From a virus: 64,000 bases of DNA. Where the stretch lies: the IMG/VR virus record IMGVR_UViG_3300017598_000768, positions 1 through 64,000 of that record. The stretch is one strand, 5' to 3'. Position numbers and translations under genes: made by a program. Below, piece by piece: positions 1,769 to 13,974 of the stretch. Positions within the stretch are counted from its first letter, which is position 1. Each line of letters starts with the position of its first letter. The notes beneath the pieces are model-generated. The model was not told the DNA's origin. It did not search any database and saw nothing but the letters and a program-made list of their open reading frames with translations.

Positions 1769-2088
1769 GTAATCAGGCGCATTCTCTCCTCGTGCCGTTG
1801 TCGGTTCCACCATACGAGCAATGCAAGGGCGATGATCTCAATCTCCCTGTCTTTCCTCTCAAGCATACCTTCTTTGATCATCGCAGCCAGTCTTTTCCTC
1901 CATTCGAGCAAGTCCTTACCATCGCCGTCCCATCTTGGACTTCCGACCTCCGATACTATCAGAGATAATGCCCTTTCGACCTTTGGTGTCAATGCTTTTC
2001 TCAACACCCCTGTCAACCTCTGTGCAACTTTCGTTTCGTCCTTACTCTTGTGCCTTATTTTCGGTGGCTTCGTCTTGTCTTTGATCAT
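1762..2088 (-). CDS. hypothetical protein
   Basis: 108-aa ORF with AAGGAGG RBS. Confidence 0.6.
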   Translation of the reverse strand: MIKDKTKPPKIRHKSKDETKVAQRLTGVLRKALTPKVERALSLIVSEVGSPRWDGDGKDLLEWRKRLAAMIKEGMLERKDREIEIIALALLVWWNRQRHEERMRLITW

Positions 2089-2926
2089 CGCATTCCTCCT
2101 TCATACATCGCAACTGTGCAAGCCTTTCCGCATAGCCGTATAAATGCAAACCTTTACTTTCAACAATCATCTCTCCATCCTTCACTCCAATCTCATTTGC
2201 CATGTATTCTTTCAAGTGCTGGATTGCAGGCAGGTTCGCCGGAAGGCCGCCCCATAAATCCCACGACCTAAAATACACGAAAAAATGCAACGTGTCGTCT
2301 TGAATCCGTGTATCAATCTGACGCAGACATGGCGGGTCTTGCAGAAGATCATCATCAGGCTTCGCAACTTGCAGAACCCTCTGATTATTTCGTGGCCCAA
2401 ACAGCATGTAAGTCTTGATGGTCAGCTCCACCTGATTCAGATAGAACACTCCATCCTCTTCTATAATAACTCTTGGATCATTCCATATAACGTCTTCCTG
2501 TACAAAAATCTCCGGGCTCAGTTCCCATACCGGAGTTCCTTCTTTCGTGTGCAGCTCATCAACCGTGCCAAGTCGATGCCTCGTCAACCTTTCACCATAC
2601 GTATAAGACTCATTCGGATTCTTGATCGACCCCATCACGTACTCAACATACGATCTTTCATAACCATCTCCTCCATACACATAATCAAACTCTACTGGAT
2701 TCGGTATGCCTATCGCCGGTGGGATCTGTGGCAGTATCTCCGGTGTAAAACTTCCATGGCCCGGATGCCGAACGTGACCTATGAAATAATCATACTCCAG
2801 TCTTGTTTGGCCTTCATAACTGCCTCTGTGGATTTCGAATCTCCTTCCGACATCCAAGATGTCGTTGACGGCTTGAAACCAGAGATCAGGCAGATCCCTG
2901 GCTACTATCTTGTGAATGTTGATCAT
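2042..2926 (-). CDS. thyA: thymidylate synthase family protein (ThyA or dUMP hydroxymethylase-like)
   Basis: YTYGERL, catalytic PPC, FRSWDLWGGLPAN (Asn indicates dUMP specificity), GLHLY. Confidence 0.85.
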   Translation of the reverse strand: MINIHKIVARDLPDLWFQAVNDILDVGRRFEIHRGSYEGQTRLEYDYFIGHVRHPGHGSFTPEILPQIPPAIGIPNPVEFDYVYGGDGYERSYVEYVMGSIKNPNESYTYGERLTRHRLGTVDELHTKEGTPVWELSPEIFVQEDVIWNDPRVIIEEDGVFYLNQVELTIKTYMLFGPRNNQRVLQVAKPDDDLLQDPPCLRQIDTRIQDDTLHFFVYFRSWDLWGGLPANLPAIQHLKEYMANEIGVKDGEMIVESKGLHLYGYAERLAQLRCMKEECDDQRQDEATENKAQE

Positions 2927-3092
2927 CAGTCACCTCCAATCCTCTTCTCTTCATTTCTTTACGTACAACTTCAATTAGGCCACGATAGAAATGCGCCGCC
3001 GTGTTATTCTGATACATCAAATGCACCATTTCAACAATGGCTCTCCCCATCTGGCTGCCAGCCTTCCTTCCTCTAACCGTAGCTCCTGCCAT
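2886..3092 (-). CDS. hypothetical protein
   Basis: ATG after AGGAGG directly downstream of the terminase stop. Confidence 0.55.
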   Translation of the reverse strand: MAGATVRGRKAGSQMGRAIVEMVHLMYQNNTAAHFYRGLIEVVRKEMKRRGLEVTDDQHSQDSSQGSA

Positions 3093-3102
3093 TATCACCC
3101 TC

Positions 3103-12219: not shown

Positions 12220-12252
12220 CGCCTCCTTCCTTTCCCCTCGTCACAATCCGCC

Positions 12253-12369
12253 TTACCCCTTCAGCTTTCGAACAACAATACTCATTACCCAACAAAACAC
12301 TACCAGCATCGTCACTCCAACCATGCAGTCAAACAACGTCTTTATGCAGTGCAGAAAGTAATCCATCAT
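12253..12369 (-). CDS. 38-aa single-TM peptide (not in ORF track)
   Basis: MMDYFLHCIKTLFDCMVGVTMLVVFCWVMSIVVRKLKG; ATGA overlap with the upstream stop. Confidence 0.4.
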   Translation of the reverse strand: MMDYFLHCIKTLFDCMVGVTMLVVFCWVMSIVVRKLKG

Positions 12370-12533
12370 TCAACGAACTCCTCTCCTGTCATTGTCTCAT
12401 ACCATTGCTTCAAAACCAGCCTAACTTGTGAAGACAGGCTCCGTTCCTCCTCTTTGCCCTTGCTCTCTAAGAACGCAACAAGCGCCTCCGGAGTTTCAAC
12501 AGTGAGTCTCCTATAGCCCTCTTTTACTGCCAT
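12366..12533 (-). CDS. ribbon-helix-helix (Arc/CopG-like) DNA-binding protein (not in ORF track)
   Basis: MAVKEGYRRLTVETPEALVAFLESKGKEEERSLSSQVRLVLKQW; AGGAGG RBS. Confidence 0.7.
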   Translation of the reverse strand: MAVKEGYRRLTVETPEALVAFLESKGKEEERSLSSQVRLVLKQWYETMTGEEFVE

Positions 12534-13974
12534 TCTTCTTACCTCCTTTCACTTTTTCATAACGCGGTTGCCTTCCACCAACATCTTTTATCTTCGGGTG
12601 GAATGTCAAATAACTATACAGCTGCCATGCCGTGACTTTCCCACGCGCCCCAAGAAACCAAATATCCTCCCTGTACTGGTTGTCGTCTGACGTGGCAATC
12701 GAGTGCATGAGATCCGCAAGATGAAACATCTTAGGCATTCGGTCAATGTGCAAGTCTACCATCTGGGCATTTCCGCTCGGAACTTCTGGGTTCCCGAACT
12801 TCTTTGGAGGCCACATCTCCCTGCACTGTCTCTCCATGGCGTTAAAAATATCAATGGAGCATTTCTGTTCACTTGCATTCTTCTCCATCCATTGAGGCAC
12901 CCAGGACACCTTAGCTTTCGCTTCCTCATAATTCTCATAAATCCATTTCATCCATCCATACGCCTCCTGGAACGTGCCGTACTTGAACGGATAGTCTGAC
13001 CACTTCTCTTTCATCATGGCCTGTGCCCATGGAAACTTCGGCAAGATAGTCACTATCCCTGTTGCCATCTGCTCGTGCAGCCCAATGCTGAATCCTTCAA
13101 TACGAGATGAAGACAGCAGTACATGGCTCCTAACGCATTTCTCCAAAAACTGTTCTGTATTCAGCGTCGGATAGATTTCTATCTCCTTCGGCACCTCCAT
13201 CGGCAGGGTGGGTAATGGTGAAGTAATAATAATACGTATCTTACGGCCCGCTGCAAAGAACTTGTCATAGGTTTCAATTAGCTGTTTGGCTCTCTTCGCG
13301 GCGTTTAGCCTACCTCCAAAAAACACCGTGAACACCGCATGCTTCCTCTGCGTCTTCTTCTTCGCCCGGACCTTCTTCAGTATATCAAAAGGAAGACCAT
13401 GAGGGAACACCATCATATCGTTCTTGATGCGTTTGCAAGCGCTTGCATTTAAGTAACGCCTACACATCTTCATTGCCACTCGCTTCTCATGCTCTGTCTC
13501 TACAATCGTCTTACACGTACTGTACGCAAAAGCACGCGACTGCAAATCGATGTCTCCTATTCCTTTTACCATCGGCGTACTGTAATCTGCAACCATGGAC
13601 TCTTGAATCCATACTGGCAGATAGCTGCCTTTACCATCCCACAGCATTCTTTGCAGATATCCAGCCGCTCCTGTGCGAGTCGTGAGAACTGCATCCACAT
13701 ACAGTTTTGGCTTCCCTATATTCACCCAATCAAGCAAACCTGGCTGGATCTCTCCCATCGCAACATGGAACTTCTTCCATTTTCCTAACGGCAAATAGAA
13801 CAGTCCCGGCTCGGGCTTGACTTTTTTTATATCAGTCATATCGGCAGGGATCACCATGTAGCTTGTGACTCCAGCTGACTCATGAATCGAACGTGCAAAC
13901 CTCCGGAACTGGCTAATCTCCGACTCTGTTGCCCACGTTTTATGCGTCACGCATGGAGTTATCAGTATTCTCAC
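12511..13974 (-). CDS. GT-B fold glycosyltransferase (GT4-like)
   Basis: Start re-placed at GTG (MRILIT); FGGRLNAAKR, SSRIEGFSIGLHE (E-x7-E). Confidence 0.8.
   Translation of the reverse strand: MRILITPCVTHKTWATESEISQFRRFARSIHESAGVTSYMVIPADMTDIKKVKPEPGLFYLPLGKWKKFHVAMGEIQPGLLDWVNIGKPKLYVDAVLTTRTGAAGYLQRMLWDGKGSYLPVWIQESMVADYSTPMVKGIGDIDLQSRAFAYSTCKTIVETEHEKRVAMKMCRRYLNASACKRIKNDMMVFPHGLPFDILKKVRAKKKTQRKHAVFTVFFGGRLNAAKRAKQLIETYDKFFAAGRKIRIIITSPLPTLPMEVPKEIEIYPTLNTEQFLEKCVRSHVLLSSSRIEGFSIGLHEQMATGIVTILPKFPWAQAMMKEKWSDYPFKYGTFQEAYGWMKWIYENYEEAKAKVSWVPQWMEKNASEQKCSIDIFNAMERQCREMWPPKKFGNPEVPSGNAQMVDLHIDRMPKMFHLADLMHSIATSDDNQYREDIWFLGARGKVTAWQLYSYLTFHPKIKDVGGRQPRYEKVKGGKKNGSKRGL

Follow-up and report, generated by a model that had tools for sequence, protein, structure and literature searches.

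We analysed the first 64 kb (the window) of a 99,832-bp linear viral record, IMGVR_UViG_3300017598_000768 (labelled G000; CheckV completeness estimate 86%), and in particular a block of genes in which the terminase subunits stand together with a GT-B glycosyltransferase (GT), a ParB-like protein, and enzymes of amino-sugar metabolism. Judging by its gene content, this block represents an uncharacterised module that is widespread in phages, from those of Arthrobacter to those of Vibrio, Stenotrophomonas, and Rhodobacter. The sugar-tailoring genes vary from copy to copy whereas the GT and the ParB form a constant pair, which indicates that these two are the core of the module. The accessory enzymes most likely turn UDP-GlcNAc into a tailored amino sugar, and we tentatively suggest that the GT–ParB pair sets such a sugar, sparsely, on phage DNA, a reading that we hold with less than even confidence.

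The pairing of GT and ParB is kept from 49% down to about 15–25% GT identity. It is found in six of the compared loci of relatives (L036, L037, L038, L046, L049, and L051) and also, among phages in culture, in DLP5/DLP3 (L042 is the stretch of Stenotrophomonas phage DLP5; L055 and L056 together are S. maltophilia phage DLP3, MT110073.1), V-YDF132, and Kitkat. L036 and L037 (GT 46–49% identical) share the order AAA ATPase, phrog_17202 protein, aminotransferase, RarA-like protein, GT, SGNH hydrolase, short-chain dehydrogenase/reductase (SDR), WecB-type epimerase, ParB, and small terminase subunit (TerS); the large subunit (TerL) comes next in L036, and L037 stops at the contig edge before it. 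Further away, L051 (GT 25% identical) has SGNH, methyltransferase (MTase), GT, two aminotransferases, flavin reductase, WecB, a fragment of a UDP-sugar dehydrogenase, ParB, TerS, and TerL. DLP5 and DLP3 carry a PIG-L deacetylase, SDR, aminotransferase, MTase, GT, ParB, TerS, and TerL, and V-YDF132 carries PIG-L, two WbqC-like genes, MTase, GT, ParB, TerS, and TerL. Smaller versions are found in L049 (PIG-L, MTase, GT, ParB, Dam), in L038 and L046 (MTase, GT, ParB), and in Arthrobacter phage Kitkat, where the GT and ParB are followed five genes on by an MTase and the module region holds no sugar-tailoring genes. No open reading frame (ORF) downstream of ParB matches the TerL of the window in L046 and L049 (BLAST, E 1e-3). 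In Rhodobacter phage RcZahn, the right genome end holds genes for a deacetylase, an SDR, an aminotransferase, an MTase, and the GT; ParB was not seen in the stretch examined there.

The accessory genes come and go around this pair. SGNH copies, 64% identical, follow the GT in L036 and L037, and further copies occur in L044 and L051; a PIG-L deacetylase takes the place of SGNH in DLP5, V-YDF132, RcZahn, and L049. The GT has an MTase as its neighbour in L038, L049, L051, DLP5, V-YDF132, and RcZahn. Three phages share the flavin reductase, namely G000, L037 (directly upstream of the GT), and L051 (beside WecB). WecB copies stand before ParB in L036 and L037 (44–49% identical) and one gene further upstream in L051 (33%), and an LbH (left-handed beta-helix) acyltransferase lies directly upstream of the GT in L036. 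The unnamed genes that adjoin the GT in relatives resolved into PIG-L, Dam, LbH, flavin reductase, the UDP-sugar dehydrogenase fragment, and DUF5662, with no oxygenase among them. The original prediction, made from the letters of the window, had placed an amino-sugar pathway and a GT-B in a ParB–terminase locus, and this holds, as does its premise that such loci are sites of phage DNA modification (PMC4738411, PMC8256090, PMC13229309, and bioRxiv 10.1101/2023.12.21.572611). Its description of the system as novel stands only in part: the same module is already present in cultured phages, where it is annotated but unstudied, and no paper characterising it was found in the literature searched.

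The GT itself is of the GT4 type. Its family assignment is weak in PF00534 and comes from phrog_30253 (“glycosyltransferase”), and the motifs GGRLN..KR and EGF..G..E are invariant in eight homologues; the latter includes the E-x7-E signature of retaining GT4 enzymes (E293-G-F...E301). An AlphaFold2 (AF2) model (mean confidence, pLDDT, 80) has a GT4-type GT-B fold with no predicted membrane anchor, so the structural comparison proposed with the original prediction bore out the GT-B call. The best solved matches are MshA, PglA, and BshA (TMq 0.54–0.58), with T4 AGT in 24th place (TMq 0.43), and GTs of Arthrobacter phages match over their full length (TM 0.76–0.79). Validated phage DNA GT-B enzymes likewise resemble BshA and MshA structurally (bioRxiv 10.1101/2023.12.21.572611), and the GT4-like fold is therefore no argument against a DNA acceptor. 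At about residues 395–475 the protein carries a winged-helix domain. The C-terminal stretch of about 90 residues, modelled alone (pLDDT 82), finds forkhead DNA-binding domains as top Foldseek matches and aligns with the winged helices of ORC/Cdc6, DpnI, Fur, H1, and cullin (VIA-align Z 5.6–7.6). The fold assignment is consistent across these matches; the scores are moderate, and the fold does not fix the function. A profile of the domain retrieved 16 representatives, nearly all of them the same GT–winged-helix proteins of about 470–510 residues, and no informative fusions.

Homologues of this GT are few. A search of 5.8 billion proteins gave eight close ones and nine of near-equal length, and there were none on plasmids. 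A search of viral contigs with the single protein gave no match, and one with an alignment gave three loci. The distant homologues occur in precisely those phages that have the closest TerL. We also considered the charge of the GT as an indicator of DNA binding and set it aside as uninformative, given that the isoelectric point (pI) is spread from 5.6 to 9.6 across homologues.

The ParB partner has a ParB/Srx N-terminal domain (residues 32–105), with a GEHR box that aligns to the GERR of Spo0J, and a pI of 4.75; Pfam detected no helix-turn-helix in it. The GT-linked ParBs are one coherent family (247–298 residues, pI 4.6–5.5; motifs NPN, GxHR, and RxN..GK) that adjoins the GT in ten phages. 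Phage thymine dioxygenases have activators of the ParB type that are described as keeping N- and C-terminal domains and having no obvious DNA-binding domain (PMC13229309). By comparison of their features, the GT-linked ParBs seem to fit this description.

All the genes that the original prediction had listed for the block are present and co-oriented on the minus strand, with two of them, the ribbon-helix-helix (RHH) protein and TerS, being weak calls (Table 1). Most junctions overlap or span less than 15 nt, with wider gaps only ahead of SGNH (146 nt) and from TerL to the thymidylate synthase (TS) homologue (176 nt). Two groups are tightly coupled: SGNH, MTase, DegT, SDR, and flavin reductase, and then WecB, the 116-residue ORF, ParB, TerS, and TerL. 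The RHH-like ORF is not present between GT and SGNH in L036 and L037. TerS has no family match in Pfam or phrog searches, and its homologues lie between ParB and TerL in L036, L037, and L051. TerL is 34–38% identical to the annotated TerL of Vibrio, Rhizobium, and Stenotrophomonas phages. There is no evidence that ties the tRNA to the sugar pathway.

Table 1. Features of the block and of other regions of the window discussed in the text.
Feature	Position	Strand	Remarks
ThyA-family TS, Desulfobacterales type	2042..2926	-	PF00303 30.4 bits; PPC, RSWD, PAN motifs
Large terminase subunit (TerL)	3103..5142	-	phrog_2 E 1e-11
Putative small terminase subunit (TerS)	5111..5878	-	called by position; pI 9.7
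Acidic ParB-like protein	5868..6761	-	PF02195; phrog_26387 E 8.7e-55
116-residue ORF	6775..7125	-	no family match; not found in relatives
WecB-type non-hydrolysing UDP-GlcNAc 2-epimerase homologue	7095..8135	-	PF02350 E 1.5e-58; TIGR00236 194.6 bits vs cut-off 210
tRNA-Gly(CCC)	8193..8267	-	ARAGORN; inserted in operon
Flavin reductase-like protein	8275..8793	-	PF01613 E 3.3e-25
Extended SDR acting on NDP-sugar	8803..9771	-	PF01370 and PF16363
DegT/PseC-like pyridoxal-phosphate sugar aminotransferase	9768..10946	-	PF01041 E 9.5e-73; PseC 173 bits, below cut-off
Class I S-adenosylmethionine MTase	10950..11645	-	Methyltransf_25/12/31/23/11
SGNH/GDSL hydrolase	11638..12219	-	PF13472 E 1.8e-14
55-residue ORF, weakly RHH-like	12366..12533	-	PF07878 E 0.0028, under Pfam cut-off
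GT4-type GT-B with C-terminal winged-helix domain	12511..13974	-	GTG start, upstream ATG at 14010; 487 residues
Conserved 334-residue protein	14871-15875		just upstream of GT
phrog_17202 protein	16476-17300		
AAA ATPase, 548 residues	17272-18918		near GT, upstream side
Portal-like gene, then 536-residue protein	32431-35695		weak PF04860; weak ATLF metalloprotease-like C-terminus
Family A DNA polymerase, 1119 residues	35705-39064		N-terminal uracil-DNA glycosylase (UDG)-superfamily domain; HNH/intein-like insertion
Second glycosylation cluster	40187..47698	-	GT2, three LbH acyltransferases, Glyco_trans_1_2 GT, MTase; beside tail-fibre genes

Gene identities, folds, and the conserved pairing of GT and ParB are direct results, and candidate enzymes for the proposed route from ManNAc through a keto sugar to an amino sugar are in place; it is the order of the steps, the roles of the flavin reductase and of ParB, and above all the DNA acceptor that we infer. 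On the most economical route, the WecB-type 2-epimerase would act first, converting UDP-GlcNAc into UDP-ManNAc. The SDR, in which we read by eye the GxxGxxG, Ser-run, and YxxxK motifs and did not see a TDE triad, appears by motif to be of the oxidase, epimerase, or reductase type rather than a 4,6-dehydratase, and would produce a keto sugar by oxidation; the flavin reductase may serve to recycle the nicotinamide cofactor. The amine would then come from DegT, the single DegT match and sole aminotransferase of the whole record, and the MTase, which by its families is of the small-molecule type, would methylate N or O. The SGNH protein, a probable sugar de-acylase or acyl-transfer enzyme, may remove an acyl group, either ahead of transfer or following it, and would stand in for the PIG-L deacetylases of relatives. 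Finally, the GT, targeted or activated by ParB, would set the sugar on phage DNA after replication, around packaging, at limited density or at specific sites and not on each copy of one base.

Several observations favour DNA as the acceptor. The GT carries a winged helix, and most structural neighbours of this domain bind DNA. In the collections searched, the GT family occurs only in phage records and in viral or metagenome contigs. The link to ParB persists even in the two loci in which no match to the window TerL follows. DLP5 has the module and yet shows neither Thr/Ser tracts in its first 50 kb, which hold the structural genes, nor a GT cluster beside its tail genes, which argues that the module is independent of mucin-like virion tails. 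There is also a report that DLP3 DNA resists 15 restriction enzymes, with SmaI, ClaI, EcoRI, and NdeI among those that left it uncut (PMC7326821).

Other results weigh against this reading. The DLP3 genome contains no site for 10 of the 15 enzymes and a single one for XbaI; only SmaI (68 sites), ClaI (18), EcoRI (7), and NdeI (4) are informative, and resistance at these sites could be explained by ordinary methylation. G000 lacks 14 of the 64 six-base palindromes (including GGATCC, CTCGAG, GGCGCC, GCCGGC, CCCGGG, and GGGCCC), compared with 44 of the 4,032 non-palindromic hexamers, and DLP3 lacks 25 of the 64. CTAG is absent from G000 (0 seen, 102 expected) and GGCC is depleted (160 against 273 expected). 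The mean z-score of 6-bp palindromes per 50 kb is -1.7 in G000, -3.0 in DLP3, and -3.4 in DLP5, against -0.7 in a segment of T4, the sole control. Avoidance of palindromes implies that such sites, where present, get cut. The DNA of these phages would hence be exposed to restriction enzymes, which speaks against a blanket hypermodification and makes it likely that any modification is partial or site-specific. The enzymes that could prepare a base for glycosylation were also missing from our searches. Tet_JBP (PF12851) had no match in G000 at E<=1, although very divergent forms could escape, and none in four complete cultured relatives at E<=0.1; no C5-MTase matched in G000; no ThyA family member was found in the same four relatives; and Pfam sweeps of most G000 ORFs retrieved no 2OG (2-oxoglutarate) oxygenase, 5-hmU (5-hydroxymethyluracil) kinase, or AADT. 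Apart from the TS homologue, discussed below, these searches returned no candidate for a base-hydroxylating enzyme. Winged helices also mediate protein contacts, and the Z-scores of the fold matches are moderate. The wide spread of GT pI and the presence in G000 of a second glycosylation cluster, an alternative sink for the sugar, add to these points. Two proteins upstream of the GT, the 334-residue one and the phrog_17202 one, were considered as hidden dioxygenases and rejected: by eye they look helical and resemble the C-terminal region of RarA/MgsA, with no HxD...H motif.

The TS homologue was part of the original prediction, in which it would make a hydroxymethyl- or hydroxypyrimidine nucleotide that is incorporated into DNA and then glycosylated by the GT-B. 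Its uracil-specifying Asn is indeed present, as are the RSWD, PAN, and PPC motifs, and the PF00303 match is above the cut-off. The protein diverges from canonical ThyA (its best NCBIfam match is the archaeal TIGR03283, 77 bits) and is 65–71% identical to proteins of about 263–265 residues encoded on large chromosomes of Desulfobacterales and related metagenome-assembled genomes (loci L001-L035 and genomes G001-G064 in our comparison). This family is the sole PF00303 match in four of five large Desulfobacterales genomes, one of the four being a complete 5.57-Mb chromosome, and ThyX is found in none of the five. Among 61 genomes of the order, 34 have only the TS-like protein, 20 only ThyX, 5 both, 1 only canonical ThyA, and 1 none. 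This near-exclusive distribution (Fisher p=1.5e-9) is what one would expect if the two enzymes were alternatives for a single essential reaction. Of the 128 columns with at least 95% conservation among 119 homologues, the phage protein retains 125. It looks like an orthodox member of a housekeeping family and is not conserved with the module, and the proposed link to a TS-made hydroxymethylpyrimidine is not supported.

The diagnostic residues tell a similar story. The marks of pyrimidine hydroxymethylases and 5-hydroxy-dCMP synthases (TS homologues of T4, SPO1, and RB69) are N177D for dCMP enzymes, D169N for 5hoC (5-hydroxycytosine) synthases, L143D/E, and membership in a phage-specific clade; published work ties the change of Leu143 to Asp to non-methyl products and hydroxymethylases (PMC13326640). 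The phage TS has Cys146, Asn177 (dUMP), and Asp169, and so is not a 5-hydroxy-dCMP synthase; the dCMP signature is absent as well. At the position of E. coli ThyA L143, where the ThyA rule expects a bulky hydrophobic residue, it has Asp, which would favour the original model. The same Asp, however, is at least 95% conserved across the cellular family, so the hydroxymethylase rule seemingly does not transfer to this subfamily. Also in favour of that model are the flavin reductase of the block, given that 5-hydroxy-dCMP synthases bind flavin (PMC13326640), and the position of DLP5 gp110 (L042 11473-12366), a very divergent ThyX-like protein (PF02511, 29 bits) encoded directly after TerL. DLP3 too has a ThyX-like “hypothetical protein” there, in the place of the ThyA-type gene of the window. 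Against it, the Pfam sweeps found no dNMP kinase, dUTPase, or dCMP deaminase, neither ThyA nor ThyX was found in V-YDF132 and Kitkat, and the probably anaerobic hosts would disfavour O2-dependent hydroxylation. In RcZahn, a canonical ThyX lies 24 kb from the module. We consider the TS-based model highly improbable. Instead, the gene is most likely a host-derived auxiliary dTMP synthase, separate from the module, and its relatives would point to a Desulfobacterales-like anaerobic host. We had also considered a phage-specific TS clade, which we dropped: the nearest relatives are cellular, and tblastn against 50,697 phage records gave no match. The Asp-for-Leu143 signature alone is unfit for calling modified-base synthases, being found in the apparent housekeeping TS of many Desulfobacterales. 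As an observation in its own right, many members of this order have a divergent ThyA family in forms of about 265 and about 220 residues, near-exclusive with ThyX and with Asp at the Leu143 position.

The alternative already raised with the original prediction, that the pathway supplies donors for virion glycosylation, has to be taken seriously as a rival in G000. Virion glycosylation is known in phages and giant viruses, e.g., on the capsids and tails of mycobacteriophages. In this scenario, the amino sugar would serve phage-protein glycosylation, with the GT acting on a virion or packaging protein and its adjacency to ParB reflecting inherited order or protein contact. The second cluster (Table 1) contains GTs, an MTase, and LbH enzymes whose best matches, below cut-off, are the amino-sugar N-acyltransferases NeuD/PglD/VioB and LpxD. 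Six virion-region proteins of G000 bear long Thr/Ser tracts (50821-52227 in the window; 63672-67328, 71220-71774, and 73312-73974 in the record), on fibre, distal-tail, tail-tube, and head-region proteins, and the cluster and these proteins together are probably a system of virion O-glycosylation. The only aminotransferase of the record sits in the block, so the block may feed the second cluster, making the latter a possible second consumer of the amino sugar. The LbH acyltransferase beside the GT in L036, the protein-binding winged helices, and the palindrome avoidance, which fits unmodified DNA, point the same way. Yet DLP5 carries the module although its first 50 kb show no such tracts and its tail genes have no GT cluster beside them, the module region of Kitkat has only the GT, ParB, and MTase, the block lies between replication and packaging genes and apart from the structural genes, and the pair persists in L046 and L049, where no window-TerL match follows. 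The parts of the DLP3 report that we consulted do not mention glycosylation in its virion proteomics (PMC7326821). On balance, this explanation seems somewhat unlikely, if well worth considering.

It is also conceivable that the module alters a glycan of the host envelope or makes a small glycoconjugate, as GT4–deacetylase pairs do, with a function in superinfection exclusion, receptor masking, or redox chemistry. MshA, BshA, and PglA are the top solved structures, the depositors named the DLP5 and V-YDF132 genes BshA and BshB, small membrane proteins flank the GT in DLP5, and DLP3 and DLP5 are temperate; the authors of the DLP5 study proposed modification of the lipopolysaccharide (PMC7326821, PMC5834331). 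We nevertheless judge this quite unlikely. The GT–ParB pair is shared by phages of Gram-positive and of Gram-negative hosts, two groups with entirely different envelopes; family searches of G000 revealed no flippase, polyprenyl-phosphate transferase, or Cys ligase; the GT model has a winged helix and no membrane anchor; and the Pfam sweeps recognised no integrase or repressor. Sparse glycosylation of phage DNA by the GT–ParB pair, the reading we tentatively prefer, also has a bolder form. Here the winged-helix GT4 and the acidic ParB would be a new DNA glycosylation machine that adds a tailored, probably cationic, amino sugar to a canonical base or to the backbone, with no hydroxymethyl or hydroxy precursor and no need for O2, and with ParB as a packaging-coupled loader or activator. 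We think this form unlikely as it stands; being oxygen-free, such a machine would suit phages of anaerobes.

The module shares features with several known systems. Like the post-replicative 5mYOX (TET/JBP-type) hypermodification clusters, some of which hold thymine dioxygenases that depend on ParB (Burke 2021, PMC8256090; O'Toole 2026, PMC13229309), it has a terminase-side locus, a ParB with seemingly no DNA-binding domain, a GT, a sugar epimerase, an O-methyltransferase-type MTase nearby, and an AAA ATPase (17272-18918). Unlike them, G000 and the four cultured relatives have no detected 5mYOX, the constant partner of ParB is the GT itself, and there is no known enzyme to make a hydroxyl on the base. 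Pre-replicative systems, i.e., the glucosyl-5hmC (5-hydroxymethylcytosine) of T4, the arabinosyl-5hoC of RB69 and A. baumannii DLP3 (PMC13326640), and the ThyS-associated GT-B clusters (bioRxiv 10.1101/2023.12.21.572611), also have a phage that encodes a TS-family gene together with a GT-B and nucleotide-sugar enzymes, and in them an epimerase supplies a non-host donor sugar. In contrast to these, G000 has a TS of the host dTMP-synthase type (Asn177, Asp169) and yielded no dNMP kinase or dCTPase, its GT is GT4-like with a winged helix, not AGT/BGT-like, and it strongly avoids restriction sites, which the T4 control does not.

The same module is present in the cultured carriers, namely the Stenotrophomonas phages DLP3 and DLP5 (Delepquintavirus), Vibrio V-YDF132 and relatives, Rhodobacter RcZahn, Rhizobium RHph_TM16, and Arthrobacter Kitkat/KellEzio. 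The proteobacterial phages likewise have a GT of about 480 residues beside ParB, then TerS and TerL, except for RcZahn, whose cassette ends at the GT with no ParB in the stretch examined, and in DLP5 and RcZahn an MTase, aminotransferase, SDR, and deacetylase accompany it. G000 differs by its WecB epimerase, its flavin reductase, the SGNH protein in place of PIG-L, the tRNA, and the ThyA-type TS. The MshA/MshB, BshA/BshB, and PIG-A/PIG-L pairs provide the best solved-structure matches and a logic of GlcNAc transfer followed by de-acylation, but the module has no Cys ligase, has a winged-helix fusion, and stands in a phage- and ParB-linked context. The second cluster of G000 resembles virion glycosylation systems in its phage GTs and MTases and in the virion proteins with likely glycan-acceptor tails, from which the block is set apart by not lying beside structural genes and by the occurrence of the module in relatives that have no such tails.

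If the sugar does go onto DNA, there would be a widespread form of DNA glycosylation that needs no TS homologue and no TET/JBP dioxygenase, extending the known chemistry of phage genome protection and giving ParB-like activators a second job. What the window adds to the picture is the TS result, the rival sink within the same genome, the winged-helix model, and the restriction-site analysis. The last of these weakens the sole experimental hint, the resistance of DLP3 DNA, and shows that an absence of sites can pass for “resistance to restriction enzymes”. Cultures exist for several carriers of the module (Stenotrophomonas DLP3 and DLP5, Vibrio V-YDF132, Rhodobacter RcZahn, and Arthrobacter Kitkat).

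As for the wider setting, the minus strand holds 114 of the 143 ORFs picked by a simple ORF caller, and GC skew is strong throughout. In the direction of transcription, replication genes come first, then the block, then TerS and TerL, and then the TS homologue. The replication genes comprise PolA with its UDG domain and intein, DnaB, a primase-like protein, RecA, and an AAA ATPase, and the Pfam sweeps also identified an MT-A70 adenine MTase, RNase H, Pol X, a ligase, and GTA-like tail proteins. The DNA of the block had no megablast match in the 50,697 phage records, and a scan for promoters and terminators gave counts at chance level.

A few minor observations can be added. The 334-residue protein and the AAA ATPase keep their place upstream of the GT in G000, L036, and L037, and the former, a helical protein, has an N-terminus that by eye resembles the C-terminal region of RarA/MgsA. 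The portal-like gene and its 536-residue neighbour lie amid the replication genes, some 30 kb away from TerL. The fibre protein near the second cluster ends in 22 Thr/Ser residues; long Thr/Ser tracts are also seen on a 1218-residue distal-tail protein, the tail tube, and head-region proteins. The 116-residue ORF in the block (6775-7125) ends in ...VRTIRFPKK. Finally, a 16-bp palindrome, TTGCAAGCGCTTGCAA, has 13 copies with at most one mismatch (0 expected) between positions 358 and 62474 of the window, e.g., at 8156-8171, 26017-26032, and 56206-56221. It is spread genome-wide, with one copy between WecB and the tRNA and another within the GT gene, and is unlike canonical parS.

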